Source: Candidatus Omnitrophota bacterium
GTDB lineage: Bacteria; Omnitrophota; Gorgyraeia; Gorgyraeales; Gorgyraeaceae
Reading direction: 5' to 3'
NCBI GenBank assembly: GCA_041648935.1
Contig: JBAZOA010000001.1
Coordinates: 2,433-66,432, forward strand
DNA length: 64,000 nucleotides
The notes under the pieces were generated by a model. It ran no database searches, had not been told where the DNA came from, and saw only the letters and a list, made by a program, of their open reading frames with translations. Positions within the stretch are counted from its first letter, which is position 1, and every line of letters starts with the position of its first letter. The position numbers were made by a program, and so were the translations under genes. Shown here in pieces: positions 4,132-56,140 of this stretch.

Positions 4132-6144
4132 TTAATCCAGCGTCAGCGGATTGTAATTATACTTGGCGAAAATGGTGTAGGCGGTCCCTGCCGTGGACCC
4201 TGTCCTGGCGCCGCGCGGGACCCTCCAGCCATGGCCGGTGTCGACGTCGTCCTGGGTCGCGTAAGGAAGACAGCCCTGGCCCTGGCCTATCCTGGAAGGG
4301 CTTATGATGACCATCTTCTCAAGCTCTGATATGTAAAAATCGGCTTTTTTACCGTAATATTCAGCCCTGTCAAATTCTTTCCGCGCGCGGTAATAATCGG
4401 CCATTATCCTGAAGGTCACGGCCATCTGACCAGTCCACTCGGTTGAGACAACCCCTCCCCTCGCCACGTGTTCGTATTTCCCGAAATCGAATCCCGTGAC
4501 CTTGACGTTCTCGCTGTCAGGCCTTGAATAATCCGTGGCGACCAGGCAATTTGTCTCGGCGAAATCGATTATCTGGTCAGGGTCCATGCCCTCATCCTTC
4601 AGGACCTTCGGCCCTATGGCGGCTATGGCCCAGGCAAACGTATCCGTGGCGATGGTGGCATCGCCCTTGCCCCTATTCATCCTGCCTTCTTTTTTATTAA
4701 AGGCGTTTTTCTTTATCCACGCGAGCGTCTTTTTCCGCGCGTCCAGATACTTCGCCTCTTCCGTGATCTTGTAAAGCATGCCGAAAAAGGCGTAGGCGTC
4801 CAGGTTGTGCTCCGTGCTGAACCACGCGTACCTGGGCCCTCCCTTTATCCCGTATTCCCTGTCCTGCCTCTGCAGATAGATCAGCCACTTGGCGATGTCC
4901 TCCGCCATGGCGAGATACGTCTCGTCTTTAAACTTGGCCGTGTACTGAAGTATCGCGATCCCCAGCCATATGTTAGGCCCGGCGTGGACGATGTATTCGC
5001 TGGGCTTGCCCGTATAGGCGTCATAGGCGTTCACGAACCCGTCATCGACCTTCTGGGCGCCATCCCTGTAAAAATCCAGGGCCGCCTTCGCGTTGCTCTG
5101 GTCGCCCATCAATGTAAAACACTGTATCGCGAGAGACTGGTCATAAGTAAACGCCCAGTCCTCCAGGTCCTTGTCCCCCTCGTAGCTGATCACCAGGCCC
5201 GTGCGCCTGTTCTGATGATTTTTTATCCACTTGTACATGCTGACAACGCTCTTGTCCTCGACCTTCCTGAATGACGCCAAAAGGGCCCTCAGGTTGTCCT
5301 CGACGGAGACCTTGTCGAACGAGATCCTCGAGACCCTGTTTTTCAGATATTCGTTTTCCCTGCTCAACCTGGTTATCCTCGCGTTAAACCTCGCCTTTTC
5401 CAGAAGAGACTGTTTTATCTTTGACTTTGCCTCGAACCCGTTTTCCCTAAGATACGCTATGAGACTGTCCTTCGCCATAAATTCGGAATTCAGCCTGTCA
5501 AGATCCGTCAGCTTGGCCTTGTACTGATCTATCTCGCTTTTATTATCGGAAATCGCGGCCTCTATTTCCTTGTTTTCCCTGTCAAACTGCTTTAGCTTTT
5601 TTTCCAAAGAGGCCTTTTTATCCGAAAGCCGCGCCAGCTCCTGCACTAATTTTTTATTGTCCACCCTTAACTTAAGGTCGCTGGCGGAAAAATACAGAAG
5701 CCCGGCGGCGATAACCAAAAACAGCGCGCCGAAAAATACGGGCGCGAAAACCGTTTTTCTGGCGTGGAGATATATGCGGTTCCTGTCTTTAGGATCTATA
5801 TCCACAAAGGAAAGCCCTATCAGGTATTTATTCGGGTAAGTCGCGCCTACCTTCTGGTGCCAGGCGATCTTCGCGACGGCCTTGGTCTCCATGCGGCTCA
5901 GGGGGATGTGCATCCTGACGTCCAGCCTCGCGCCCGGATCTTTCAGGAATTGTTCCAGGTCGTCCCTGAGGTCGTTCGCCTCCAGACAGATGCCGCCCTT
6001 GCCTATGTTCCTAGTGAAGCCCTGCTTCACGTCGCTTATGGAACCGGACGTCTCGGGATCTATGAATTGGAATTCCACCGGAAAGACCGCGTTGAGGCGG
6101 ATATAATTCCTGCGGTCGGATTGTTTTGGTTGGGACACTGCCAT
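4132..6144 (-). CDS. PilZ-domain membrane protein with coiled-coil and C-terminal alpha/alpha-repeat (glycoside-hydrolase-like) domain
   Basis: N-terminal PilZ motifs (RRNYIRL = RxxxR; DVKQGFTRNIGKGG = DxSxxG-like). One TM helix and a ~150-aa K/E-rich coiled coil. The C-terminal ~350 aa is rich in W/Y and aromatic/Gly repeats and is periplasmic-like. Confidence 0.55.
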   Translation of the reverse strand: MAVSQPKQSDRRNYIRLNAVFPVEFQFIDPETSGSISDVKQGFTRNIGKGGICLEANDLRDDLEQFLKDPGARLDVRMHIPLSRMETKAVAKIAWHQKVGATYPNKYLIGLSFVDIDPKDRNRIYLHARKTVFAPVFFGALFLVIAAGLLYFSASDLKLRVDNKKLVQELARLSDKKASLEKKLKQFDRENKEIEAAISDNKSEIDQYKAKLTDLDRLNSEFMAKDSLIAYLRENGFEAKSKIKQSLLEKARFNARITRLSRENEYLKNRVSRISFDKVSVEDNLRALLASFRKVEDKSVVSMYKWIKNHQNRRTGLVISYEGDKDLEDWAFTYDQSLAIQCFTLMGDQSNAKAALDFYRDGAQKVDDGFVNAYDAYTGKPSEYIVHAGPNIWLGIAILQYTAKFKDETYLAMAEDIAKWLIYLQRQDREYGIKGGPRYAWFSTEHNLDAYAFFGMLYKITEEAKYLDARKKTLAWIKKNAFNKKEGRMNRGKGDATIATDTFAWAIAAIGPKVLKDEGMDPDQIIDFAETNCLVATDYSRPDSENVKVTGFDFGKYEHVARGGVVSTEWTGQMAVTFRIMADYYRARKEFDRAEYYGKKADFYISELEKMVIISPSRIGQGQGCLPYATQDDVDTGHGWRVPRGARTGSTAGTAYTIFAKYNYNPLTLD

Positions 6145-6190: not shown

Positions 6191-6231
6191 CCTTAGTTGA
6201 CACTCAAGCAATACTCCTTTTGTCAACTTGC
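6191..6231. repeat. E1 palindromic intergenic element, copy A (cttagttgaca-N18-tgtcaacttgc)
   Basis: Shares the AGTTGACA...AAAGGAGTATTGCT...TGTCAACT core with copies at 9595, 25297 and 56101. It reads in opposite orientation on the plus strand and lies 47 nt upstream of the PilZ-protein ATG. Confidence 0.8.
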
Positions 6232-6237
6232 GGGATA

Positions 6238-6645
6238 TTACGGGAGGCGGGGCTTCTTGATTTTCTTTTTAACCTGCCTTGGCTTGATAAAAAAATAGGA
6301 GCACAGAAAACCCAACAATATCACCGCGGAAAATAAAATGTGCGTCTCGCGCCTCATCGGGGAGGCCGCCGTGACAGGAGATGCGCGGTCCGGCGTGACT
6401 TCTTTCCCCGCCGGCGGAACGGGCGCCTCGCCGGAGAACCCATCGTCTTCATCGCCGGCGGCGCTCACGAACGGCCGCAATTTCCTCTTATTTTCCTCTC
6501 TCGCGGAATTTACCTCGTTTGACACGTTGATCTTTTCGATATCCGCAGAGGATTCCTCGGCAACCCATTCCCCGTCCCCCTCGTAAGGCCTCAGGGCGTA
6601 AAGAGAAGGAACGGCTGTCAAGATAATCAGGAAGACAGCCGACAT
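6238..6645 (-). CDS. Hypothetical secreted protein with C-terminal TM anchor and lysine-rich tail
   Basis: ORF with signal-peptide-like start MSAVFLIILTAVPSLYA; start moved to the internal Met to avoid overlap. Acidic, low-complexity middle region. C-terminal hydrophobic helix followed by KKKIKKPRLP. No recognisable domain. Confidence 0.3.
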   Translation of the reverse strand: MSAVFLIILTAVPSLYALRPYEGDGEWVAEESSADIEKINVSNEVNSAREENKRKLRPFVSAAGDEDDGFSGEAPVPPAGKEVTPDRASPVTAASPMRRETHILFSAVILLGFLCSYFFIKPRQVKKKIKKPRLP

Positions 6646-8157: not shown

Positions 8158-8661
8158 TTAGGCGTTCCTCATGGTGACAGACGTCGACATGCTCGCCCAA
8201 TGCGCCCCGTAAAAGGCGTTATTATCAAAAACCTTAAAGGTTATAACCGCCAATCTTCCGGACAGCTGAAAAAACGGGATGCCCGGCTCAGCGTTCACGT
8301 TACGCAGGAGCGTCACCTGGTCCCCGCTGACAGACACATTCGGATCGTATATGATATCTGTCCCGGATACATAATATTCCCTCGTGATATCGTCTGAGGC
8401 GTCTTGAGGGGTCCTGTTCGGATCGGTAACGAACCTTACGCGGTTTCCGCTGTCCAGTATAGTGGCGCCTGTCGCCGAACGCATACTTCTGCAAATCTTA
8501 TCCAGGCTGACCCTGCCGAGCGACTGAAAGGTAATCTGGGAAAACCCGCCCCTCCACAATCGCTGAGTGGTGACATAGGTCCCGCCGATGATAGCGAACA
8601 CTATCAGGGCGATGCCTAAACTGACCAATAATTCCGCTATGCTGAAACCCTTGTTCCCCAC
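8158..8661 (-). CDS. Prepilin-type N-terminal cleavage/methylation domain protein (PilW-like minor pilin)
   Basis: MGNKGFSIAELLVSLGIALIVFAII has G|FSIAE with Glu at +5 and a hydrophobic helix. Confidence 0.6.
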   Translation of the reverse strand: MGNKGFSIAELLVSLGIALIVFAIIGGTYVTTQRLWRGGFSQITFQSLGRVSLDKICRSMRSATGATILDSGNRVRFVTDPNRTPQDASDDITREYYVSGTDIIYDPNVSVSGDQVTLLRNVNAEPGIPFFQLSGRLAVITFKVFDNNAFYGAHWASMSTSVTMRNA

Positions 8662-9176: not shown

Positions 9177-9578
9177 CTATTCGCCGGAAACAACGTTCAG
9201 GAGGGATTCCTCCGCGAAGATCCGCGCCTTTGCCCTGACGGCTATCGCGATGCTGTCGCTGGGCCTGGAGTCCACTTCTATCACGCGGCCGTCCATCTCC
9301 ATGACCAGTTTGGCGAAATACGTGTTCTGCTCTAATTTCGTGATGACTACCTTCGTGATCTTGGCGCCCAATTGCCTGATGGCGTCATGCAATAAATCAT
9401 GGGTCATGGGCCTGGGGGGATTAATCCCGTTTATCTTCATCTTTATGGCCGTAACCTCCATTATGCCTATCACGATGGAAAGCATGCGGCTGCCGGCTTT
9501 TTCCTTCAGGACAATCACCTGCTCCCCCCTGTTTTCGTCTATCCGTATCTTTTTTAACTCCATCTCTATCATGGACAT
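9177..9578 (-). CDS. Bifunctional nuclease (DUF151/BFN) family protein
   Basis: 133 aa; the conserved core PRPMTHDLLHDAIRQLGAKITKVVI matches the BFN (DNase/RNase) family. Confidence 0.65.
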   Translation of the reverse strand: MSMIEMELKKIRIDENRGEQVIVLKEKAGSRMLSIVIGIMEVTAIKMKINGINPPRPMTHDLLHDAIRQLGAKITKVVITKLEQNTYFAKLVMEMDGRVIEVDSRPSDSIAIAVRAKARIFAEESLLNVVSGE

Positions 9579-9594
9579 GTCAAATCTCCTGCCC

Positions 9595-9634
9595 CTTAGT
9601 TGACAAAAGGAGTATTACTCATGTGTCAACTTAG
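9595..9634. repeat. E1 palindromic intergenic element, copy B (cttagttgaca-aaaggagtattactcatg-tgtcaacttag)
   Basis: 11-bp inverted arms with one T:T mismatch; 18-nt spacer contains AAAGGAG. Ends 2 nt before the stop of the 4Fe-4S gene and lies 16 nt upstream of the BFN nuclease ATG. Confidence 0.85.
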
Positions 9635-9636
9635 GA

Positions 9637-10236
9637 TTATGTGTTCAGGGTTATCTCTCTCCTGCATTTGGGACAAAGTATCTTGATCCTGTCCTGGCGG
9701 GTCAATTCTTTCGGCGCCTCGATATTCAGATACGCCAATCTCAGCTCTTTCAACGCGGATAGATACGCCGTGGGGCTTGAATACGCCAGGGCCCCTAATT
9801 TTTTCGCGACCCACACAAGGTGGTCTTTCGCCCCAACCACGCAATTACAACCCTCGCACAAAACAAGCTCTTTTTCAATCGATTCAACGGCGTCTTCCCT
9901 GTTAAATACGGCGAGGTCGAATTTATTCGATAATTTTATGCCTTCCTGCGTTATGCAGGCCGCCTGGCATTGTCCGCAGAATATACATCTGTCATAGCGC
10001 AGATCGAGCCTGCGGACAGGAGGATTTGAATCGATGGAATCCTTTACCTCTATGCACCCCGCGGGGCATACCTCGCTGCAGGCCTTGCAGCCGACGCATC
10101 CGTCCTTAAAATATTCCGGCTTGCCCCTGAAACGCTTGGCGGGCACGTGAGGCTTGGAAGGAAAACTTGTGGTATAGGGGCCTTTTATCAGCGCCCTGAC
10201 CGCCTCAGCCAGTTCTCTCAATTTCGGATATCTCAT
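9637..10236 (-). CDS. 4Fe-4S dicluster ferredoxin-type subunit of membrane-bound hydrogenase (NuoI/EchF/MbhN-like)
   Basis: CVGCKACSEVCPAGC and CIFCGQCQAAC motifs, plus extra Cys pairs (CEGCNC, CPKC). Start moved to MRYPKLREL, which overlaps the mrpG stop by ATGA. The long upstream ORF extension is low-complexity. Confidence 0.7.
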   Translation of the reverse strand: MRYPKLRELAEAVRALIKGPYTTSFPSKPHVPAKRFRGKPEYFKDGCVGCKACSEVCPAGCIEVKDSIDSNPPVRRLDLRYDRCIFCGQCQAACITQEGIKLSNKFDLAVFNREDAVESIEKELVLCEGCNCVVGAKDHLVWVAKKLGALAYSSPTAYLSALKELRLAYLNIEAPKELTRQDRIKILCPKCRREITLNT

Positions 10237-10875: not shown

Positions 10876-11357
10876 TCGAATACCCTCTTTATTATGTTTT
10901 CTATTTTCCCGATCGCGGCGGCCGCGCCCCCCGACCCGATATCAAGACAATGCACGTGCATGACCCCGTTCTCGGCGTCCAGGTCCACAAAAAACACGCC
11001 CGGCATCAGAGTGATCGAATTCGCCAGAAAGGTGATCGCGGTGTCTGACCTTAGAACCGTCTTCACCCTGATCATGCCGGGATTAACGCGCGGCCGCGTG
11101 TCCAGCACCCTTAACGCCATGTCAACGTTCGCCTTCAGAAATTCCCAACTAAGCGCGGCCGCGTAAACCAAAAACCAGAAATATCTTTTTATCTGCCTGA
11201 AATTCTGAGGCCTTCTTATAAACAGATAGCTTGTCAGGCCCGTGACCACGGCGCTGACTATCACGCCGGCTATCACGTGCTGGGTATCGATGGGCCATGA
11301 TAAAAGCGCCCAGATCATGAAATAAATTATGAATAATATTATCTTGTTTAATATCAT
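10872..11357 (-). CDS. mrpE: Mrp/Mnh antiporter subunit E-like
   Basis: 161 aa; SITLMPGVFFVDLD matches the MnhE SITLTPGT motif. Confidence 0.75.
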   Translation of the reverse strand: MILNKIILFIIYFMIWALLSWPIDTQHVIAGVIVSAVVTGLTSYLFIRRPQNFRQIKRYFWFLVYAAALSWEFLKANVDMALRVLDTRPRVNPGMIRVKTVLRSDTAITFLANSITLMPGVFFVDLDAENGVMHVHCLDIGSGGAAAAIGKIENIIKRVFE

Positions 11358-17595: not shown

Positions 17596-17635
17596 AGCAA
17601 CAGTAGAGGAGGTTTAAACCTCCTCTACTGTTGCT
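17596..17635. repeat. E2 perfect palindrome, copy 1 (AGCAACAGTAGAGGAGG-TTTAAA-CCTCCTCTACTGTTGCT)
   Basis: 40-bp perfect palindrome. Overlaps the NuoB-like stop codon by 2 nt and lies 24 nt upstream of the NuoC-like ATG. Related to the copy at 20289. Confidence 0.9.
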
Positions 17636-20288: not shown

Positions 20289-20330
20289 CAGCAGCAGTAG
20301 GGGAGGTTTAAACCTCCCCTACTGCTGCTG
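20289..20330. repeat. E2 perfect palindrome, copy 2 (CAGCAGCAGTAGGGGAGG-TTTAAA-CCTCCCCTACTGCTGCTG)
   Basis: 42-bp perfect palindrome, 3 nt after the HydB-like stop and 13-16 nt upstream of the HydG-like start. Differs from copy 1 at positions that are changed symmetrically in both arms. Confidence 0.9.
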
Positions 20331-25296: not shown

Positions 25297-25337
25297 CTAA
25301 GTTGACAAAAGGAGTATTGCTTGTTGTGTCAACTTAG
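25297..25337. repeat. E1 palindromic intergenic element, copy C (ctaagttgaca-N19-tgtcaacttag; perfect 11-bp arms)
   Basis: Contains the hypF-like TGA stop in its arm and ends 15 nt upstream of the hypC ATG. Confidence 0.85.
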
Positions 25338-26489
25338 ACCGGCTATTATTGCCTGACCCAGAGGTATGCCGCCGTCATGCGTCGGGATATTTTTATGTAA
25401 ATACGCCTTAAAACCGCTTTTCCCTAAAATGGACCCAACGCGGCCGCTCAGGTATCTGTTCTGGAACACGCCTCCGCTCAGGCATACCCTTGATATTCTA
25501 TATCTTTTCCTCAATAAAACGCAAACATCTTTTATCATCCCGCATACCGCGTCGTGGAATTTTAAAGAAATGACGCCGGGCGGGATTTTCTTATCTAAAT
25601 CCCTGATTATACCCTTAATCACTGGCCCGGGCTCTATGATAAAAATATCCTTATCTTTAATTATATCAAACTTATACCTTGTGACCTTGTGACCTTGTGA
25701 CCTTGTGACCAATATCTCTTTCTCTAATTTAACTGCCGCCTCCCCCTCGTATTTCGCGAAGCCGCATATCCCGATCAACGCCGAGACAGCGTAGAAAAGA
25801 CGGCCCGCGCTCGAAGTCAACGGGCTGTTTATGTTTTTCGCTATCATCTGAATCGCGATATTCGTATTTTCCCTGTTTATTTTCAACCTGCTCATGTCTT
25901 TATCGTGAACGCCATGCAGATAACTCAGCGCCATGCGCCAGGGCTCCCTGACGCACGCCTCTCCCCCGGGCATGGGCATGTATCTCAAATGTCCGGCGCG
26001 CGCGAACCCCCTGAAGCCGCCGATAAAAAATTCCCCGCCCCAGATATTTCCGTCAGGGCCGAATCCTGTCCCGTCAAACGCGACACCTATTATTTCGCCC
26101 TTGACATTATTATCAGCCATGCAGCTCGCCACGTGCGCCTCGTGATGCTGTATTTTTTTTATCCTTAACCCTTCGTCCCGCGCCAGCTCATCCGCGTATT
26201 TAGCGGAAATATATTCCGGATGCAGATCGCATGCTATTATTTTCGGCTTTACGCGGAATTTCTTACGCGCCGCTCTAATATGCCGCTCGAAAGACCTGAA
26301 ATTACCCAGCTCGGACAAATCTCCCCCCGCTTCCGAGAGATACGCGACATTCCCATCGGCAAGGCAAAAGGCGCTCTTTGACTGGGCGCCAAGCGCGAGG
26401 ACGCTGTTCTTTAAACGATAAGGTAAAATAATTTTGATATAATCCATAAAAATAACTTTGTCTCCGGCCGACAGGCCTGAGAAAAGCAT
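25329..26489 (-). CDS. hypF: HypF-like carbamoyltransferase, C-terminal Kae1/YgjD-like domain only (lacks acylphosphatase, Zn-finger and YrdC domains)
   Basis: Aligns with only the C-terminal ~380 aa of HypF (LALGAQSKSAFCLADGNVAYLSEAGGDL...). Start uncertain (Met at 26489 or 26447), and no SD before either. Confidence 0.55.
   Translation of the reverse strand: MLFSGLSAGDKVIFMDYIKIILPYRLKNSVLALGAQSKSAFCLADGNVAYLSEAGGDLSELGNFRSFERHIRAARKKFRVKPKIIACDLHPEYISAKYADELARDEGLRIKKIQHHEAHVASCMADNNVKGEIIGVAFDGTGFGPDGNIWGGEFFIGGFRGFARAGHLRYMPMPGGEACVREPWRMALSYLHGVHDKDMSRLKINRENTNIAIQMIAKNINSPLTSSAGRLFYAVSALIGICGFAKYEGEAAVKLEKEILVTRSQGHKVTRYKFDIIKDKDIFIIEPGPVIKGIIRDLDKKIPPGVISLKFHDAVCGMIKDVCVLLRKRYRISRVCLSGGVFQNRYLSGRVGSILGKSGFKAYLHKNIPTHDGGIPLGQAIIAGLS
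25681..25710. repeat. Tandem octamer repeat (gtgacctt) x3.75 inside the hypF-like coding sequence
   Basis: gtgaccttgtgaccttgtgaccttgtgacc encodes VTRSQGHKVTR on the minus strand. Confidence 0.9.
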
Positions 26490-26511
26490 TGTTTGTTCGA
26501 GCGGGCACGGT

Positions 26512-26536
26512 GTCCCGGCGCTGAAAGTGCCGGGAC
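26512..26536 (-). other. GC-rich hairpin (GTCCCGGC-N9-GCCGGGAC) in the leader of the hypF-like gene
   Basis: Perfect 8-bp GC stem 22 nt upstream of the candidate hypF start, within an unusually GC-rich 137-nt intergenic segment. Confidence 0.4.
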
Positions 26537-26555
26537 GAGCGAGAAGAAACACTGA

Positions 26556-26570
26556 GCGAGGCCGCCTCGC
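26556..26570 (-). terminator. Candidate terminator hairpin (GCGAGGC-C-GCCTCGC) for the metE-like gene
   Basis: GC hairpin followed on the minus strand by UCAGUGUUUCUUCUC, about 57 nt after the metE-like stop. Confidence 0.3.
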
Positions 26571-26626
26571 TGGGGCGGCCGAGCGTCTTTTCGAAGGCCT
26601 GCCGGCCGGAGACATAAATTATCTTA

Positions 26627-27658
26627 TTAAAATTTTTCTCTAGCTAATTTTGCTACCTTGCCCAATTTACTGATAATGTCTTCCGCGAGCGCTTCAGAAA
26701 GGGTACCCATGCCACAACTCGGGGTAAGCATTGAATTGGATATTATCAAATCTCTGGGGATTGATTTCGCGGCCAGCCTCTCCATCCCTTCGGACAATCT
26801 CTTAAAAAGCGACGCCGGCGTCTCTTTCAAAGCGGCCTCCGAGGTAGGCACTATGCCCCACGCCAGATATCCGCCCCTCTTCAAAAATCCCGCGATATCC
26901 CCGGAACACAGCAATAACCCCTCCAGGTATGAATACGCGTCAAAATTTATTATATCGACCTTCGTGTCCGTGAGTATCGACCAATCCGTGTTGCCGCAGC
27001 AATGAATCCCCGCGAAGGCCCCTCCCGCGTGTATCTTATCTATGACCGCGTCCAGCATTAATACTATCTCCCGCTTTTCCACATTAAAAAAACTTGAGCC
27101 GAAACTCACCAGATACGGCTCATCTATGAAAATTATGACATCTCTCTCCGAGGTCTTTAATCTATCTATCTGCCAGCGCGCCTTTATGCCCAGGAGCTTG
27201 ATAAACGCGTCTTTCAGCGTGTCATCATAAATAATCGATTTTCCGTTTTCATCAACCACGCCCAGCCCGAAACTCACCGGTCCCGTGACCTGGCCTTTTA
27301 CGTATTTTTTATCACAGGTCTCCATGCCGTCCAGAAACGCGTAAAGGCCGGCCGCGAAATCATCCGTCATCCCCAGGCCGCCGTAATCCCCGGAAAGATA
27401 CGCCTCGTATATGGCGCTCAACCCCTCGCTCAGGTCGCCGGAACTATCCACATGCATCTTTTTGTTTTTTTCGTCAATGACGACCGAAGGCAATCCCTGG
27501 GCATACTGCGAATACATGCCTTCCTTGAAAGACATCTTCGGCAGCTGCGGCCAGAATGGGATGTCAAAGTTATCGCGCACGATCCTGACGGCCTTTTCGG
27601 CGTCCAGGTGCGGCAAACTGCCTATCCCTATCGTCAGAAATTTACCGTCTATCCTCAT
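26627..27658 (-). CDS. Cobalamin-independent methionine synthase (MetE) catalytic-domain-like / UroD-superfamily methyltransferase
   Basis: LTIGIGSLPH N-terminus resembles the MetE C-domain. IHCCGNTDW has His/Cys Zn-ligand-type residues. 343 aa. Confidence 0.45.
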   Translation of the reverse strand: MRIDGKFLTIGIGSLPHLDAEKAVRIVRDNFDIPFWPQLPKMSFKEGMYSQYAQGLPSVVIDEKNKKMHVDSSGDLSEGLSAIYEAYLSGDYGGLGMTDDFAAGLYAFLDGMETCDKKYVKGQVTGPVSFGLGVVDENGKSIIYDDTLKDAFIKLLGIKARWQIDRLKTSERDVIIFIDEPYLVSFGSSFFNVEKREIVLMLDAVIDKIHAGGAFAGIHCCGNTDWSILTDTKVDIINFDAYSYLEGLLLCSGDIAGFLKRGGYLAWGIVPTSEAALKETPASLFKRLSEGMERLAAKSIPRDLIISNSMLTPSCGMGTLSEALAEDIISKLGKVAKLAREKF

Positions 27659-42532: not shown

Positions 42533-45500
42533 CTACAGGCAGGCTCCGGAAGCCCGGAGCGGATAGAATAAACCCATGAATTCTGTTGTCTCTTGCATGG
42601 CTGATCTTGTCCCGTCCCACAGCCCTCGCGTAAGTTCGTCCTGCCGGACGCCGTCGCTGTAAAATCTTTTTACAATCCCGGATTCCAGCGGATCGCGGCT
42701 ATCCTTATTTATAACCACGACATCCTCATCGCCCAGTTGATTCGCCAGTCTCCGTAAATCGCGCTGACCGTAACCCAGCGTGAACGCGTCTATGACAAAC
42801 CCATCCTCTGTCTCTACCCAATACTGGCCATTATACATGACATGCGCCTTTATCCCGCGCTCCTTGAAAAGCCTTTCTACAATAATTTCCGCGTGCCTCT
42901 TGCACGCGCCGGCGGTACCCTTTAAAAACTCATGCACATCACGCGCCAGGCCATTATACAAAAGCTTTTTCTCATCCAAACTGACTCCGGATATATCAAT
43001 ATCCCCCCAATCCCAAGAAGTCACTCTCGCCCCGTCTTTTTCTAAAGTCAAACACACAACCCTGACCGGATAGTTAATAAACGGCCTGTTTGCCATCGCG
43101 AAAGTGAAGTTAGATTCCGACCCAACCTCATCCCAAAGAATGACTTTTTTACGCGGCCTGTTCAACAATGTTTCCAGATGCATGTCAAAGAAATGACCTA
43201 AATACATGTCATATGACATCTCATTATTAAGGATATGCTCCTTATCTTTATATAACAACTTCAGATAAAGATCATTGTTACGCGAAACAGTGTCATCCCC
43301 ATCCCTGATCCTGCGAAAACCGCCGGCAAAAAGCTGGTCTATTATAACTAAAATCTCTTCCGGATTAAACATGCCCGCATTATATCTATATTTTTCATCA
43401 ACCTTTACGCCGGGATTCATGATGGTTTTCGCGAGAGTACTTTTTCCCCTCACGCCGGCCTCAGAATCAAGCAAGAACAGCACGGGCTTCTCTGATTCGG
43501 ATATATGGCGGCCCGCGTAGTCAAGGGCCTGCTGTGTATCGGAAAATCTGGCTTGTTTTTTCATTTCCTCTATTTTTTGAACCGCATCCCCAAGATACTC
43601 TAACCCAAAAATAAACCCTCTATCAAGAATAAAACGATCCAGAAACTTGCCAAGCATACTATCCATCATACTATTAAAAATAAATTTCTCTCTTCCTAAG
43701 GTATCCCACTCAGGAACAGCCTCGCCGCATCTCTTAATTATATCTCTATATTCATCCTCTGTTATTTGTATCGCGGCGGCGCGCTTTCCCGAACCCGGAA
43801 ACATGAACACCGTATCTCTCGCGAAAAATTTTGAGCGCAGGTCCGGCATTTTATCGGAATATGTCTTCACGAATAACAGCGCCGGCAGATGATTCAATTC
43901 CTGATCGCTCAATTTCCCCCAATCTCTGCCCATCTGCTTGGCCGCGTAAGAAACAACATCTCTAAGCGCCGTATCCAGCATTTCCCTGAAATCAGCGACA
44001 TCAAGTTTTCTGGCGTTTCTGTTTATAATATAAGCGGTCCCGTGAAAATCTGTGGTCAGGGCCCTGTTCAGCTGCGAGCGGGGCAGTCCATGAATACCTA
44101 TATTGGGCAGAGAATCTATAATCTGTCTTGCCACTGTATCGTCCCGCCATATTTCTAACATATTATTGGACGCCAGTGTCCCGCCGGCCGCGGCTAATCC
44201 GGCGTAAGCCTGATTCTTTTTAAATTCAGCGCTCCTTAAAAACATCAGATACGCCTTTACCTTCCCGAGGCTCCTTTTCTGGCCTGTCATCGACCTTACT
44301 ACGCCTGTATACCTGGCCGCCGCGGCATAGTGATAAAAATAAGGAGGATAGTAAGACGAGTTGAAAATCCCGCTATATCGATCCTCAAATTCAGGCCCTG
44401 TGATTTTTTGAAACTTATCCACAACCCACGAATCTGAATGCTGTTTCATCTTAGAGACATCCGGTATCGCCTTCTCGTCTTTATTGCTGTCAAGTATCCC
44501 GTCTACCGCGGTCCTTATGGCCTTCGCGGCAAGCAATATGTTCACCGCGTCTATGCCCGCCACCCCGATTAATAACCCCTTATTGACTGTTATATATCCC
44601 TGCCGGATGCCGTATTCCTCAGAGTATGAGACAAGATTAAGATCGATAAATTCCTGGAACGCCGCCCTGTCTTTTTCGCCGGTAATCATTGAAAACAAAA
44701 GCTCCTTATTGTCGTATAACAAAGTCAAGACATCGTCTTTCGCGATGAAATCCGCCCTCACGTTGGCCATGCCTGTCGTATTTCTAAAATCAAACATGCC
44801 CATCAATTCCGAGAGATACTCTTTTACAGCCCTTTTTATGGAATTCTGATTATCAGAATCCAGTTTTTCCTCGTACGCCACCCCGGCCAGAAACTCCGGT
44901 TCAAGACCATACTGCCCCGCGGCGAACCTTATCGCCTTTGCGCGCGAAGGGGTTAGAAAACCTTTTACTATTTTCATATCTTCTTTGGATAAAAGGCTTT
45001 TCTTTGTCGCTCTGGAGGCGCGGAAATATCTCAGCTGGGCGGCAAAGGCCCTTTCCTCAACATATCTTTCTTTGTGAAGGGGGCTGAGCAAATCCTCCCG
45101 CTCCGCCTTTTCGCGGGAAGAAGGCTCTCCGAGTTCCAGCGCCAATCTCCCTGCGCCCAAAAGCAATAAGAGACCGCCTCCCCTCTTCACCCCCCTGCTA
45201 AGGAACTCCCTTCTTGATATGTTTTTATTGGAGGCTAAAGTTACCGGGCCTTTATCTATTACTAATGGCGTGATCGCCAGAGGCAGCGTTCCGCCCTCAT
45301 TAGATTTAACCTGTTCTAACTGCGACAACAGAGGATCCAATAAATCAAAGGACAGATTTTTCACGTTGGCGGGCAGATCAAACTGCTTGGAGTCCCCGGA
45401 ATTAACAAATGACAGGGCAACCCCTCCTTTTATCTGCGGCATGACTATGCCCGTGACCTTTTTAATCCTGGTTAATGTTTCCTGCACCATCTTAGAGTCT

Positions 45501-48500
45501 TTTATGTCAGAAAAGAATTTTTCTACCGTCTCGGTATGATTCGCGGCATGCGGATGCAAATTCACCAAAGAATGCCCCTGCAGAAGGTCGTCGTCGATTG
45601 TGATCAAAGAGGCTTTATTGAAAATGTCAAGCCCGAGACCCTTGCTGAAAACATCATCCACGTAAGCCAATGAAACGAGTTTTCCGACCTGCCAATTGCC
45701 GGTTATCGGCACAATCCTTTCTATTGTCCTTCCGTCTCCGGACCACCTGCCCTTATTGACGCGCACATAAGTCATCAATTTATAATGCGGGTCGTCAATC
45801 ATGACACCCTTGACGATAAAATCAAAATCAGACCTTTTTATCCCCAGCCTGGTAAAATCTTCCGTATTTTCTATGTATCTCTTGGCCTTTCTTATCCCTT
45901 TCAAAACGTCTTTTCTGTTTATCTCCCCTGGTATCTGAACAAGCGCGGCGCCATGACTGACTATGCCCGCTATGACATTGTCATTGCCGCGCAAGACCTC
46001 CAATAGTTTCTTTAAATTTTTTATCTTTGGCTGTCTGCGCAAATCCCACAGTGTCTCATCTATATCGAACATGACTATGACAGGCTCTTTGATATCTTGC
46101 AGCGTATCGGAGATAGCCTTTAACCTGTTATTATCATCATCTTCTGAAACATTTATCAAAACAGGATAATCTCTTATCCTGCGGGTCATGTCCGCGAAAG
46201 AAGGTTCTACAAAATAATTGACCGCCATTTCCTGTTTGCCTGTCAAATGGTCTCTGGCCAAGGCGACATTTATGATCTCAAGACCTTCCTCAACGTATGG
46301 CGCCAATAAATCCTCTTTCAATATACGGAACACCTTATAACTATTAATCCCGTCGTATAACACAATTTCGTTGGAATCCAGACTGACAGAAAGTTCTTCC
46401 AGGATATTATCCAGCTGCCCCTTGGACACGTTTCTCAGCCTGTATCCTATCTGATGCTTATCTTCGTCTACCCGGCCTATTTTTTTAGCTCCAAGCTCTC
46501 TCTGAAGCCGGATCGTAAAAATAGTCTTGCCTGACATTTGATTGCCGTTAATTAAAATGAGTTTCTTTTTCCCCGGATTTTCCATTACCATGGCTTTGAT
46601 TTTCTTGACTCCCTCATCCAAAGAAAAGCTCCCCGCTTTCTTTTCCATGATACTGGCGTCCAGCCTGCCTTTTAGTATCCCGGCGTTGGAGGCCATGCCG
46701 CCGCTTCCATTCGCGCCATCAAATCTGTCTCTGAAGCTATCTTTGGATTCCGCTGAATTCGCCAGGGGCGCCCTTAATTTCCCGTTCACCTCGCTTATCA
46801 GCTCTTCTATGGGCTTTCGCTTGCCGGACAATAAATATTTATAATTCTCCTCGTCTATCTCCGTGCTGGAATACGGCGTTATGACTACGTATGAATATCC
46901 GTTTTCCTTTAATAACCTTGTTATCCCCTCCGTATGGAACCCCCCTGATATCAGGGCGGCAGTCTTGACTTTGCGTTTTTCTATCTCGCTCGCCGCGTTA
47001 TCGAATAAAACATTGTCCCTTTTGCGCGCGATCTCATAGAAACGCTCAAGCTGAGAAAAATGTCCATCTATCAAGGCGGGATCATAATCCGCCGCCGTCC
47101 GTATATTATATTTGGGCAGGTTTTCCTTTAAGAACCTCTCAAAAAATCCTATCTTGAAATCATCCTTATTTTTAAGATAATAAGTTAATTCCTCGTTTGA
47201 GAGTCTGAGGTTAAAAAATGAATCCAGGATCTTTATGTGCCTCAGGGCCTTCGAGAGAAATCTCTGGTCTGAATTTTCAGACAAGCTGTCTTTTATTTGG
47301 GAGGCCAGATCTTCTATCTCATTAAAGAGCTTTACCGCGTCAAGGGAATTGGCCTTTCTCAGATAAGCCAAAAACCGCCTGACATCCTGAAAATCGCTTA
47401 ATTCGTCCGTTAAATGCCTTTGGGCCAATTCATCCAGATAACCATAAAAAGAATATGGCGAGATCTTTTGGTCCTTGAATAAGGACGCCTTGGCAAGCAA
47501 GGTCTCTGTCTCGCTTTTATTATCCTTCTCTGTCAGGACAGCCTGAAGTCTCGCCAGCAAATCCTGAGAGTCGTTTTTAATTTTTTCCTGGTCTATTGTT
47601 TTTTCAAAATCAAGCGATTCTTTCAGTATCGCTATATTTTTAAAGCCGCTTATATCCATATCCCCGACCAGGGCGAGAAGATAATTCAAATATTCATTCG
47701 TTCCCAGCTTGGCGCGTTCATATTCTTTTTCCTTCGCGTCTATTTTCAGGAGTTCGGAGGAATACATCTTTGGCTTCAACTCTTCCAGCGCCGATTTGAC
47801 CTGGTCAATCACAAACTGGCTATCCGCGGAATATTCCATTATCTTGTTAAACTCCGCGATATTTTCGAAATAAAGCCCCTTATCCTCGATACCCCATATC
47901 GGAAGCTCGGGATATTTTGTTATGGACAGATATTCCTCTCCGGTGAGTTCCCCTGATTCCACAAAGAGCCTGGCTGTCTTTTCACGGACCTCTGGGTCAG
48001 GAAAACCAGCCACGGAACTCGTATCAACCTCGCCCTCGGCCCCCTCTGAACACACGAGGCCCAGATCATAATCTTTTATCAAAATCTCCAAAATACCGGC
48101 CAGGTTAAAACTCGCTTCCGGGTTAGTGTGCAGGTCCTGGATATGGACCACTAACGGCTTTCTCGCCTTTTGGTCCGCGCCTTGGGCCTCATACACCTCA
48201 ATTACCTTTCCTGTCGTTTCCGGTATATATATGCTAGATATATCTTTGAAAGAAGATAACTTTACGCTATGAGATATATCTTTATCGTAAACGCTGGATT
48301 TGGAGGCATGGGCCTTGCCCGACAGGATATCCGTCTTTTTCTGAATCTCCGATTCTCTTTGCTCCTGTATCTTTTTGTAATCAGGTCTTTTGCCCTTGAA
48401 TATACTCCTGTCGCTTGGCTCAGGATAGACCGCGCCAGTGGCCAAAAATACCTGGACCAACAATAAAGATATTATTTTTATTGATATTCTTTTTTGAGGG

Positions 48501-48649
48501 TTCAGCATGGTTAAAAAAATCCCGGGCACGTCCCTTATTAGTATGTGGTCTCTGCCATGGGAGAGAGGCCATATTAAGAGGCGATGCCCGAGAAATATCC
48601 TTTTTAACAAAAAGGCCAGGTCTCCTTCTACCTGGCTATTGAGACCCAT
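42533..48649 (-). CDS. Giant multidomain protein (2038 aa) with two P-loop kinase-like motifs, a HAD-like motif and an internal TM segment
   Basis: Uninterrupted 6.1 kb ORF. Motifs include a signal-like MLNPQKRISIKIISLLLVQVFLATGAV, LILINGNQMSGKT and VLFLLDSEAGVRGKSTLAKTI (AAA_33/zeta-toxin-like P-loops), VIVMFDIDETLWD (HAD motif I), and an internal SRREFLSRG-GGGLLLLLGAG TM segment. Confidence 0.5.
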   Translation of the reverse strand: MGLNSQVEGDLAFLLKRIFLGHRLLIWPLSHGRDHILIRDVPGIFLTMLNPQKRISIKIISLLLVQVFLATGAVYPEPSDRSIFKGKRPDYKKIQEQRESEIQKKTDILSGKAHASKSSVYDKDISHSVKLSSFKDISSIYIPETTGKVIEVYEAQGADQKARKPLVVHIQDLHTNPEASFNLAGILEILIKDYDLGLVCSEGAEGEVDTSSVAGFPDPEVREKTARLFVESGELTGEEYLSITKYPELPIWGIEDKGLYFENIAEFNKIMEYSADSQFVIDQVKSALEELKPKMYSSELLKIDAKEKEYERAKLGTNEYLNYLLALVGDMDISGFKNIAILKESLDFEKTIDQEKIKNDSQDLLARLQAVLTEKDNKSETETLLAKASLFKDQKISPYSFYGYLDELAQRHLTDELSDFQDVRRFLAYLRKANSLDAVKLFNEIEDLASQIKDSLSENSDQRFLSKALRHIKILDSFFNLRLSNEELTYYLKNKDDFKIGFFERFLKENLPKYNIRTAADYDPALIDGHFSQLERFYEIARKRDNVLFDNAASEIEKRKVKTAALISGGFHTEGITRLLKENGYSYVVITPYSSTEIDEENYKYLLSGKRKPIEELISEVNGKLRAPLANSAESKDSFRDRFDGANGSGGMASNAGILKGRLDASIMEKKAGSFSLDEGVKKIKAMVMENPGKKKLILINGNQMSGKTIFTIRLQRELGAKKIGRVDEDKHQIGYRLRNVSKGQLDNILEELSVSLDSNEIVLYDGINSYKVFRILKEDLLAPYVEEGLEIINVALARDHLTGKQEMAVNYFVEPSFADMTRRIRDYPVLINVSEDDDNNRLKAISDTLQDIKEPVIVMFDIDETLWDLRRQPKIKNLKKLLEVLRGNDNVIAGIVSHGAALVQIPGEINRKDVLKGIRKAKRYIENTEDFTRLGIKRSDFDFIVKGVMIDDPHYKLMTYVRVNKGRWSGDGRTIERIVPITGNWQVGKLVSLAYVDDVFSKGLGLDIFNKASLITIDDDLLQGHSLVNLHPHAANHTETVEKFFSDIKDSKMVQETLTRIKKVTGIVMPQIKGGVALSFVNSGDSKQFDLPANVKNLSFDLLDPLLSQLEQVKSNEGGTLPLAITPLVIDKGPVTLASNKNISRREFLSRGVKRGGGLLLLLGAGRLALELGEPSSREKAEREDLLSPLHKERYVEERAFAAQLRYFRASRATKKSLLSKEDMKIVKGFLTPSRAKAIRFAAGQYGLEPEFLAGVAYEEKLDSDNQNSIKRAVKEYLSELMGMFDFRNTTGMANVRADFIAKDDVLTLLYDNKELLFSMITGEKDRAAFQEFIDLNLVSYSEEYGIRQGYITVNKGLLIGVAGIDAVNILLAAKAIRTAVDGILDSNKDEKAIPDVSKMKQHSDSWVVDKFQKITGPEFEDRYSGIFNSSYYPPYFYHYAAAARYTGVVRSMTGQKRSLGKVKAYLMFLRSAEFKKNQAYAGLAAAGGTLASNNMLEIWRDDTVARQIIDSLPNIGIHGLPRSQLNRALTTDFHGTAYIINRNARKLDVADFREMLDTALRDVVSYAAKQMGRDWGKLSDQELNHLPALLFVKTYSDKMPDLRSKFFARDTVFMFPGSGKRAAAIQITEDEYRDIIKRCGEAVPEWDTLGREKFIFNSMMDSMLGKFLDRFILDRGFIFGLEYLGDAVQKIEEMKKQARFSDTQQALDYAGRHISESEKPVLFLLDSEAGVRGKSTLAKTIMNPGVKVDEKYRYNAGMFNPEEILVIIDQLFAGGFRRIRDGDDTVSRNNDLYLKLLYKDKEHILNNEMSYDMYLGHFFDMHLETLLNRPRKKVILWDEVGSESNFTFAMANRPFINYPVRVVCLTLEKDGARVTSWDWGDIDISGVSLDEKKLLYNGLARDVHEFLKGTAGACKRHAEIIVERLFKERGIKAHVMYNGQYWVETEDGFVIDAFTLGYGQRDLRRLANQLGDEDVVVINKDSRDPLESGIVKRFYSDGVRQDELTRGLWDGTRSAMQETTEFMGLFYPLRASGACL

Positions 48650-48697
48650 GGCTACTTAAAATCAAATTTTGATTAACTCTTTTATAAACTCTATCAT

Positions 48698-48725
48698 AAG
48701 TATACCACAAAACTTAATTTTGTCA
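48698..48725 (-). promoter_or_regulatory. Sigma-70-like promoter (TTGACA-16-TATACT) for the giant gene
   Basis: Minus strand reads TTGACAaaattaagttttgtggTATACT, about 45 nt upstream of the annotated start. Confidence 0.45.
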
Positions 48726-48751
48726 AGGTCTCCTCCAATCTTTGTTGCGTG

Positions 48752-56100: not shown

Positions 56101-56140
56101 CTAAGTTGACAAAAGGAGTATTACTCGAGTGTCAACTAAG
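56101..56140. repeat. E1 palindromic intergenic element, copy D (ctaagttgaca-aaaggagtattactcgag-tgtcaactaag)
   Basis: Contains the batA TAG stop in its right arm and lies 20 nt upstream of the batB ATG. Confidence 0.85.

Follow-up and report, generated by a model that had tools for sequence, protein, structure and literature searches.

Repetitive extragenic palindromic (REP) sequences and bacterial interspersed mosaic elements (BIMEs) of Enterobacteria and Pseudomonas are the described repeats that most closely resemble E1, a palindromic element of 40-41 nt that we examine here in a 64-kb stretch of DNA (hereafter the window) from a Candidatus Omnitrophota metagenome-assembled genome (MAG), and in related sequences. 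REPs are short (~20-40 bp) imperfect palindromes with a stem-loop that are extragenic and located mainly downstream of coding regions. The stop codon of the flanking open reading frame (ORF) is often supplied by a REP terminus, and REP stems can contain G.T pairs (Di Nocera et al. 2013, PMC3733652). The proportion of Escherichia coli REPs that lie at most 15 nt from a stop codon depends on the catalogue consulted, and is given as either 11% (446/4,072) or ~52% (260/496) (PMC12306157).

E1 has this form and this placement. It is likewise an imperfect palindrome in the 20-40-bp range with a stem-loop, dispersed in about a hundred or more copies that are extragenic, lie mostly just 3' of ORFs and also occur within operons. 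The copies face either way, and some form inverted doublets. The sequence is specific to its lineage, E1 is predicted to form hairpins in the transcript, and its termini too can supply the stop codon of a flanking ORF (compare PMC3733652). We judge it likely, with a probability of roughly 0.8, that E1 represents a lineage-specific family of REP-like interspersed palindromes, in the form of a non-coding, non-autonomous DNA hairpin of 40-41 bp carried by a clade of the Omnitrophota.

Nevertheless, E1 differs from each of the known systems in some respects. Its core is longer than that of REPs (18-19 nt), is conserved and forms a second helix, and 80% of its copies fall within 15 nt of a stop codon, compared with the 11% or ~52% noted above for E. 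coli. REPINs are inverted REP doublets mobilised by a REP-associated tyrosine transposase (RAYT), whereas E1 copies are mostly singletons and no RAYT was found with them in the DNA sampled (~0.96 Mb). CGTC-tagged REPs and the Rickettsia palindromic elements resemble E1 in being palindromic families without a known dedicated transposase (PMC3733652), and the in-frame intragenic copies of the Rickettsia elements have a counterpart in one copy of a sister family of E1, described below, that reads in frame in a tetratricopeptide repeat (TPR) protein. However, CGTC-tagged REPs have stems of 8-9 bp and loops of 4-5 nt, dimensions that differ from those of E1, which has no CGTC tag, and E1 copies proper are essentially never inside ORFs. 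Miniature inverted-repeat transposable elements (MITEs), such as the Correia elements of Neisseria, the pneumococcal RUP and the cyanobacterial Nezha, are like E1 in being non-autonomous, in their terminal inverted repeats and intergenic dispersal, and probably in being co-transcribed with neighbouring genes. At 40 bp, however, E1 is much smaller than these elements (~100-400 bp), and it has neither a demonstrable target-site duplication nor, in the sampled DNA, a parent insertion sequence (IS) with matching ends. Mycobacterial interspersed repetitive units (MIRUs) are found in the intercistronic spacers of operons, where they overlap with the stop and start codons on either side, but they consist of 40-100-bp units that are repeated directly in tandem and encode small coupling ORFs, and are not palindromic hairpins like E1.

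Four copies of E1 in the window

The window was searched with two patterns, the 20-nt core TTGACAAAAGGAGTATTRCT with at most three mismatches, and the arms alone (AGTTGACA-N14-24-TGTCAACT). Each pattern matches exactly four sites, whereas no match was obtained in the 100 dinucleotide-preserving shuffles per pattern that served as the chance expectation. No additional, degenerate copies were found in the window by nhmmer with a profile built from ~100 copies. The four copies and their flanking genes, the latter annotated by Pfam, are listed here.

Copy A, 6192-6231, minus strand: AAAGGAG strand on minus, the sense strand of the flanking genes; subtype TTGCTTGAG; outer arm degenerate (GCAAG...CTAAG); between an unknown gene of 141 aa (stop 6238-6240, 6 nt away) and a PilZ-domain gene (start 6144, 46 nt beyond)
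Copy B (the focal copy), 9595-9634, plus strand: AAAGGAG on plus, so that the mRNA carries CUCCUUU; subtype TTACTCATG; between a 4Fe-4S protein gene (TAA stop 9637-9639, 2 nt away) and a BFN nuclease gene (start 9578, 16 nt)
Copy C, 25297-25337, plus strand: 41-nt class; subtype TTGCTTGTTG; between HypF_C (stop 25329-25331, the TGA inside TTGACA) and hypC (start 25281, 15 nt beyond)
Copy D, 56101-56140, plus strand: subtype TTACTCGAG; between batA (stop TAG 56136-56138, inside the outer arm CTTAG) and batB (start 56080, 20 nt beyond)

These results agree with an earlier note on the window, which had described four copies at these sites between co-directional minus-strand genes, a context that is matched by the ORF lists and by Pfam. 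The upstream stop codon lies 6 nt from copy A, 2 nt from copy B and inside an arm in copies C and D, and the next start codons follow at 46, 16, 15 and 20 nt beyond copies A-D, respectively. Copy A alone is flipped, as the note had described, with its AAAGGAG strand on minus and that of the other three on plus. No correctly spaced -10 element is found in the copy sequences, again as the note had stated.

The genes around the copies are ordinary housekeeping genes by Pfam, including those of hyp, bat and mrp operons. The window also carries type IV pilus genes, and pilin-like genes (N_methyl, PilX_N) adjoin copies A and B. HypF is represented in the window by two separate ORFs, 25329-26615 and 26627-27658. 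Given that the C-terminal part is a stand-alone protein of ~370-400 aa in all Omnitrophota homologues, this split is a feature of the clade rather than the mark of a pseudogene. No Rfam family reaches its gathering score anywhere in the window. A protein of the window also occurs on the 157.7-kb ENA contig ERZ27247363:k141_2608681, and BatB and BFN proteins identical to those of the window are attributed at NCBI to a Candidatus Omnitrophota MAG.

Dispersal of E1 in other genomes

A scan of JGI metagenomes returned 89 stretches, with ~100 true E1 copies on ~65 contigs, all from the single metagenome Ga0265297. A loop-anchored pattern was used to scan GTDB, with one genome per species, and of the 15 matches obtained among these species representatives, 14 are due to chance and one is true (L015, from the Omnitrophota MAG STD1_71). 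No copies were found in viral contigs, in a plasmid collection or in a phage collection. The copies from the window, Ga0265297 and STD1_71 were combined into a set of 104 non-redundant representatives with intact arms, and the alignment used below comprises 80 distinct sequences.

The window and the Ga0265297 contigs have almost no nucleotide similarity, and orthologous insertion sites common to the two were sought and none was found. Therefore, E1 occurs in at least two different organisms. Its consensus is identical, and its subtypes are alike, in these two genomes of little nucleotide similarity. On average, the element occupies about one gene junction per 8-16 kb, and extrapolation to a whole genome puts the total at ~150-300 copies. 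Some short-read contigs start or stop within E1 copies (L119, L114).

The scans also uncovered an unrelated sequence, gcgagcaagcggcgaTTGACAAAAGGAGTAAAGCACAATGTCAAtccacctcaacaagc (gcgagcaagcggcgaTTGACAAAAGGAGTAAAGCACAATGTCAA in the viral scan), that is found almost without change on numerous metagenome and viral contigs (L022, L024, L028, L036, L039, L057, L065, L080, L086, L087, L099, L102, L107 and L109-L112). This recurrent sequence, the only one returned by the viral scan, matches the search pattern by chance and is probably a conserved phage promoter together with its ribosome-binding site (RBS) region.

Architecture and folding

The E1 consensus of 40-41 nt, CTAAGTTGACA-AAAGGAGTATTRCTYGNG-TGTCAACTTAG, is laid out as C-T-W-A-G-TTGACA, followed by AAAGGAGTATTRCTY(N2-4)G and then by TGTCAA-C-T-W-A-G, where W is A or T. 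The outer inverted repeat spans 11 bp (CTAAGTTGACA/TGTCAACTTAG) and encloses a core of 18-19 nt whose own palindrome, AAAGGAGTA-T-TACTCCTTT, has decayed. In a few copies the palindrome is perfect over all 41 nt (...AAAGGAGTA-T-TACTCCTTT...), and one of these carries a doubly compensated change, AAAATGAGTA/TACTCATTT (also written AAAATGAGTA/TACTCATTTT). Relative to this perfect form, the common forms have a one-base deletion and two or three mismatches beside the 3' arm.

The boundaries of the element fall at C-T-A/T-A-G, as judged from the alignment of 80 sequences and from a logo of the flanks. Past position +/-3 there is no complementarity between the flanks, and the flanks of different copies are unrelated to each other. 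The logo beyond E1 reaches at most 0.14 bit and displays only a mild A/T richness, which upstream of the element is due to stop codons. We also considered whether E1 inserts into pre-existing hairpins, and rejected this idea because the palindrome does not extend past +/-3 into the flanks.

When folded as RNA, both strands are predicted to form an 11-bp outer helix, an internal loop and a 4-bp inner helix, with folding energies of -13 to -17.5 kcal/mol on both strands and z-scores of about -5 to -6. The perfect palindrome reaches -27 kcal/mol, and z ranges from -5 to -10 across forms. Two core positions are polymorphic, and these vary only between T-A and T.G and between G-C and G.T, which is to say by wobble on the AAAGGAG strand only, given that the G.T/U.G variants are A.C mismatches on the opposite strand. 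Such wobble variants are not enriched where the AAAGGAG strand is the one transcribed (Fisher p=0.36).

Insertion relative to close relatives

E1 is an insertion relative to close relatives of the window genome. This is evident at the batA/batB junction, which has no E1 in three relatives whose BatB proteins are 77-78% identical to that of the window and whose gene order is perfectly syntenic over 20 kb. The empty junction has a 10-nt spacer and reads ...CCT TAG GAGTTTTTGT ATG..., whereas the occupied junction in the window reads CCT TAG TTGACA...TGTCAACTTAG (listed as CCTTAG+TTGACA...CAACTTAG), followed by 20 nt and the ATG. A closer relative from a different sample (BatB 88% identical) carries E1 at the same junction, on a contig that starts inside the element. 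This copy differs from copy D at two of ~30 visible positions, both of which are variable in the family, and the 20-nt spacer beside it differs from that of the window at 5/20 positions.

At copy C, the window HypF_C protein ends ...GQAIIAG-LS*, wherein LS* is read from the arm codons CTA AGT TGA (Leu-Ser-stop), and ~30 homologues of HypF_C end ...GQAVLAG plus zero to a few residues. At copy B, the 4Fe-4S gene keeps its stop codon at the conserved position and E1 begins 2 nt after it. The copy B junction (window 9578-9640) was compared with that of a syntenic relative (L121 2511-3001; mrp genes, 4Fe-4S, HycI and BFN). The window is without the HycI protease gene and the BFN promoter of this relative, and copy B fills the junction where they would lie; their loss may be a deletion or rearrangement associated with E1. 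As a clean empty site, however, the junction upstream of BFN was discarded, because relatives either carry HycI there or are represented by contigs that end at this point.

Placement at gene ends and indifference to orientation

Using a crude ORF map to assign copies as genic or intergenic, we find E1 to be intergenic in 102 of 104 cases. For 65 (80%) of the 81 copies that separate co-directional genes, the stop codon upstream falls within -10 to +15 nt of the 5' end of the element, and in 39 (48%) it is inside an E1 arm, as the TGA of TTGACA (18 times), the TAA of CTAAG (14 times) or the TAG of CTTAG (4 times). E1 is followed by the next start codon at a median distance of 14 nt and at most 485 nt, and canonical TTGACA-N17-TATAAT promoters sit downstream of E1 where room allows. 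In the 33 roomy intergenic regions, the element is found in the stop-proximal third 19 times, in the middle third 5 times and in the start-proximal third 9 times. These genomes are very compact, with a median of ~2 nt for co-directional spacers without E1, and the closeness of E1 to stop codons is thus in part a consequence of its being intergenic.

The copies are distributed over junction types (82 co-directional, 7 convergent and 6 divergent) nearly as expected from the numbers of such junctions (81, 7 and 7). Divergent regions nonetheless contain far fewer copies than their length predicts, and four of the six copies classed as divergent are truly in promoter regions. Where genes converge, each of them can terminate in an arm of the same E1 copy. 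The association with stop codons is therefore best described as strong but not absolute. The earlier note, which knew of four copies, had proposed that others be counted and mapped, and the ~100 copies now at hand are dispersed and nearly all intergenic at stop codons, rather than few or randomly placed.

The element is neutral with regard to orientation. Of 82 co-directional copies, 36 present the core in the Shine-Dalgarno (SD) sense and 34 in the anti-SD sense, 9 have neither exact motif, and the 3 that have both are perfect palindromes. No significant link was observed between orientation and tight or loose packing against the next gene. Because orientation is split approximately 50:50 and the wobble variants are not enriched where the AAAGGAG strand is transcribed, a strand-specific function of the loop, such as anti-SD masking, loses its basis.

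Perfect and near-perfect copies cluster in a conserved leader of ~45 nt (TTTnTGTCTAnnGATAGGAAGGACTTTTTAAAGCnnTTTAGCGTA-E1) that precedes a group of paralogous secreted proteins, which start MRKI(N/H)KI... and continue with a hydrophobic stretch. At these sites, E1 is start-proximal and not stop-proximal. The leader was observed at five loci.

L037, ~4930-5060: TTTnTGTCTAnnGATAGGAAGGACTTTTTAAAGCnnTTTAGCGTA-E1 leader
L046, ~1900-2030: TTTnTGTCTAnnGATAGGAAGGACTTTTTAAAGCnnTTTAGCGTA-E1 leader
L051, ~1300-1420: TTTnTGTCTAnnGATAGGAAGGACTTTTTAAAGCnnTTTAGCGTA-E1 leader
L073, ~480-690: TTTnTGTCTAnnGATAGGAAGGACTTTTTAAAGCnnTTTAGCGTA-E1 leader
L075, ~8200-8360: TTTnTGTCTAnnGATAGGAAGGACTTTTTAAAGCnnTTTAGCGTA-E1 leader

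A sister family and other palindromes of the clade

A profile search of all fetched DNA revealed a related repeat, GTAAGTTTACAAAACGAGTATTGCTTGAAGTGTAAACTTAC, that is present in one relative (L113) as 5 copies in 21 kb, each located -3 to +8 nt from an annotated stop codon. The copies of this sister family end in GTAAG/CTTAC and are found at the following positions.

L113 3617-3657: sister-family copy, arms GTAAGTTTACA...TGTAAACTTAC
L113 11019-11060: sister-family copy, same arms
L113 11868-11908: sister-family copy, same arms
L113 17500-17540: sister-family copy, same arms
L113 18204-18244: sister-family copy, same arms

Pairing is maintained between the two families. A G-C pair of the E1 arm is replaced by T-A in the sister arm (TTGACA/TGTCAA to TTTACA/TGTAAA), and pair 15-27 of the inner helix, where most E1 copies have G.G, reads C-G in the sister copies. 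The outermost pair is less consistent, in that its 5' C is changed to G in most sister copies and the matching 3' C is present in only 2/5. In a joint alignment of both families, 83% of cells pair, compared with 29-50% when the partner is slid by 1-3 columns, and the covariation score exceeds that of all 500 shuffles. Compensatory changes in the arms, which the earlier note had put forward as something to look for, are thus present between E1 and its sister family, although they amount to few events because most arm pairs are invariant as a result of how the copies were collected.

The junctions that hold sister copies in L113 are unoccupied both in the window and in two further relatives. One of these copies (11019-11060) is located where the batB stop codon and the TPR start codon overlap (ATGA in relatives), and as annotated it provides 20 extra in-frame N-terminal codons for the TPR protein.

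A second palindrome family in the window carries GTAG...CTAC tags and is represented by two perfect palindromes that differ from each other by compensated changes. Its resemblance to canonical GTAG-type REPs suggests that a RAYT may exist in the clade. Palindromes related to this family occur in two relatives, L115 and L117, and two further, unrelated families, one of 42 nt (TTCGCTCCGCTACTCCAAAA..TTTTGGAATAGCGGAGCGAA) and one of 56 nt (CCCCGTTCCAAATCT...AGATTTGGAACGGGG), were found in two close relatives. The palindromes of these further families in L115 and L117 are at gene positions comparable to those of E1, and each genome of the clade seems to carry its own set of palindromes.

Window 17596-17635: GTAG...CTAC-tagged perfect palindrome, 40 nt
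Window 20289-20330: GTAG...CTAC-tagged perfect palindrome, 42 nt, CAGCAGCAGTAGGGGAGGTTTAAACCTCCCCTACTGCTGCTG
L115 ~11800: palindrome related to the GTAG...CTAC family
L117 7219-7260: palindrome related to the GTAG...CTAC family
L115 2134-2175 and 5547-5588: sites of the further palindrome families
L117 4993-5049, 6053-6109, 11076-11131 and 11151-11204: sites of the further palindrome families

A model for the spread of E1

We propose that E1 has spread, in the past or on an ongoing basis, to gene junctions within this Omnitrophota clade. The copying would be the work of an enzyme that is supplied in trans and recognises the hairpin, probably in the form of single-stranded DNA, and such an enzyme could be RAYT/IS200-like or could be a transposase that recognises terminal inverted repeats, cutting beside the terminal C-T-W-A-G. 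The arms of E1 carry TAA, TGA and TAG, such that they close an interrupted gene immediately. Since the element closes nearly every frame on both strands, insertions would survive only at cistron boundaries, and selection would purge those elsewhere. When transcribed inside operons, E1 is predicted to fold, whichever way round it lies, into a stable two-helix stem-loop at the stop codon. The analogy of E. coli REPs suggests that this structure should hinder 3'-to-5' exonucleases and modulate upstream translation termination and coupling.

Two observations bear on the target site and on the unit that is copied. The E1 end beside the variable core departs from CTTAG in 26% of cases, compared with 11% for the other end (p=0.025), and at the batA site the core-side end is the host's own CTTAG. 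The asymmetry of the ends, together with this one clean site, hints at insertion beside a host C-T-W-A-G. At the same empty site, a duplication of TTAG or CTTAG is indistinguishable from E1's own end. E1 is mainly a singleton, with four doublets among ~100 copies. These four are arranged head-to-head and are found at unrelated loci, yet all have the rare CCAG/CTAG core variant, which suggests that the doublet is copied as a unit, as in REPINs.

Several points weigh against E1 being a REP-like mobile repeat. The one-sided unpaired GTAG or CGTC tag of REPs is absent, and the ends of E1 are instead the paired CTAAG/CTTAG. Transposase searches covered ~0.96 Mb within about 5 kb of E1 copies, and revealed in this DNA neither an IS200/RAYT-like ORF by phmmer, with approximate IS200 and E. 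coli RAYT (YafM) sequences as queries, nor an HUH...Y motif. Ten genes that are bracketed by two E1 copies include no transposase by Pfam, and their products are pilin-like, acylphosphatase, RluD-like, response regulator, heptosyltransferase, GuaA, DapB, CinA and TopA proteins. In the sampled loci, no solitary arms were found that bracket a larger parent element. The flanks give no direct-repeat signal of a target-site duplication, and the W positions show no correlation between one end and the other. The case for transposition would thus be built from one empty/occupied site and from dispersal, and that for an effect on mRNA entirely from analogy. Moreover, an identical consensus in two divergent genomes could equally reflect selection for a host function.

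With these caveats in mind, E1 can be said to work like a REP. We file it in the broad class of small palindromic interspersed repeats, and not in the GTAG or CGTC superfamilies.

Alternative explanations

A role for E1 mainly as a host cis-regulatory RNA hairpin at cistron boundaries, serving mRNA stabilisation, processing or translational coupling with its repetitiveness being secondary, is possible but less likely. Such a role would be in keeping with a stable hairpin on either strand, with the location of E1 directly at stop codons within operons and with the identity of its consensus in two divergent genomes. It would also fit the comparison with the 88% relative at batA/batB, where the element differs at 2 of ~30 positions, both variable ones, and the spacer at 5/20, as well as the restriction of the two polymorphic core positions to U-A/U.G and G-C/G.U. 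Furthermore, a lowering of upstream translation has been reported for those E. coli REPs that lie at most 15 nt from a stop codon (PMC12306157, citing Liang et al.). However, the batA/batB junction is empty in three close relatives with an otherwise identical operon, and the hairpin is therefore dispensable at this junction in those organisms. The U.G/G.U variants are not enriched in the orientation in which they would pair (Fisher p=0.36, as given above), orientation is nearly evenly divided, and unrelated palindromes occupy comparable sites in related genomes, as selfish repeats do. The earlier note had suggested an mRNA hairpin whose anti-SD loop masks downstream RBSs. The hairpin part of this suggestion is plausible given that both strands fold, whereas the masking part is not borne out by orientations of 36 versus 34 and by the absence of a link with packing. 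A related and more doubtful view is that E1 has been domesticated as a portable module for cistron boundaries, in which the arms would close frames, the stem-loop would insulate cistrons and the core would provide an SD relay. In one orientation, AAAGGAG is followed 10-11 nt later by a mini-ORF of three codons (GTG/TTG TCA ACT TAG) that would end at the RBS of the next gene and so permit re-initiation of translation. In addition, the sequence would be kept identical across divergent Omnitrophota by a conserved protein that acts in trans and recognises the hairpin.

The remaining proposals treat E1 as a DNA signal. The earlier note had listed an operator for a dimeric regulator among the candidate roles, and a dimeric protein with TTGACA-N18-TGTCAA as its recognition site, whether it regulates globally or structures the nucleoid or chromosome, could account for the perfectly conserved inverted half-sites, the conserved spacer and the near-perfect palindromes in the 5' leader of the secreted-protein paralogues; REPs and BIMEs of E. 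coli are, after all, bound by IHF, gyrase and Pol I. We nevertheless consider an operator unlikely. Most copies adjoin stop codons within operons rather than promoters, divergent regions that contain promoters are depleted for their length, and E1 disrupts or extends ORF ends, supplying approximately half of the upstream stop codons. In addition, the half-sites are ~24-26 bp apart, which is not an integral multiple of 10.5 or 21, between families the arms covary as a stem and do not preserve a fixed recognition sequence, and the element is an insertion that is absent from close relatives with the same operon. A transcription signal is very unlikely, even though TTGACA is the -35 consensus of the host, as seen in the many TTGACA-N17-TATAAT promoters of these loci, and a strong hairpin at gene ends is reminiscent of a factor-independent terminator. 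No -10 element occurs at 16-18 nt on either strand, the sequence 17 nt downstream being GTGTCA or TTTGTC, and the stem is followed by no T-run, only by CTTAG and a variable 3' flank, so that E1 is not an intrinsic terminator. Copies A and B, which were covered by a promoter and terminator scan of the window, were not flagged, and copies also lie within tightly packed operons. DNA uptake signals in Neisseria (DUS) and Haemophilus (USS) occur as inverted pairs that sit in terminators, and E1 shares with them an inverted repeat at gene ends and, at copies A and B, the proximity of pilin-like genes (N_methyl, PilX_N). An uptake signal is the most improbable of these readings, however, in light of a density of only ~1 per 8-16 kb, a conserved unit of 40 nt with an asymmetric core in place of a 9-12-mer, and the near absence of single arms or intragenic copies. 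The compensated arm pair of the sister family likewise points to a structure and not to a fixed word. REP-like dispersal of a gene-end palindrome, the first role proposed in the earlier note, is the reading we prefer. It draws on ~100 copies, their siting at stop codons, the empty and occupied batA/batB junctions and the compensated sister family.

Two other candidates were rejected. The window copies are preceded by TAATAT, CATAAT, TAATAG or TAAAAT, which prompted the idea that E1 begins at a transcription start below a -10 box. Among 82 oriented copies, however, there is no upstream positional signal beyond C-T-A, and the real promoters sit downstream of E1. An integron attC site was rejected by inspection, since TGTCAAC and GTTGACA do not fit RYYYAAC and GTTRRRY, and the neighbours of E1 are housekeeping operons (hyp, bat and mrp) rather than cassettes.

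A candidate leader RNA elsewhere in the window

A 5' leader of ~200 nt was observed in the window, with a counterpart on another contig.

Window 48495-48745, minus strand: ~200-nt 5' leader
L058 1178-1368: counterpart of this leader

On its 5' side the leader is bounded by a canonical promoter (TTGACA-N17-TATACT), and on its 3' side by the probable start (MLNPQKRISIKI...) of a giant secreted protein, whose ORF as listed (42533-48649) extends too far at its 5' end. Over ~130 nt, the leader is 100% identical to a contig from another organism, with which the identity elsewhere is 65-84%. The predicted fold is a long hairpin followed by U7, which is terminator-like (z = -2.6), and the leader has no match in Rfam at E<=1. 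We consider it a candidate for an undescribed cis-regulatory leader RNA.

Implications

The Omnitrophota are an uncultured phylum of the Planctomycetes-Verrucomicrobia-Chlamydiae (PVC) group with very compact genomes, and no description of interspersed repeats in this phylum was found by a text search in the literature library used. E1 adds a new repeat family from an unstudied phylum, one that keeps unusually strictly to gene boundaries, and is not a new kind of system. It shows how a selfish hairpin can persist where there is almost no intergenic DNA, by bringing its own stop codons and by sitting on cistron boundaries. There are also practical consequences. Repeats of this type break short-read assemblies, and E1 shifts the ends and starts of ORFs, which affects the annotation of C-termini and start codons. 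Its copies are usable as markers of strains or lineages. Together with its sister family, E1 constitutes a small natural experiment on the question of which enzyme recognises hairpins that have no GTAG tag.

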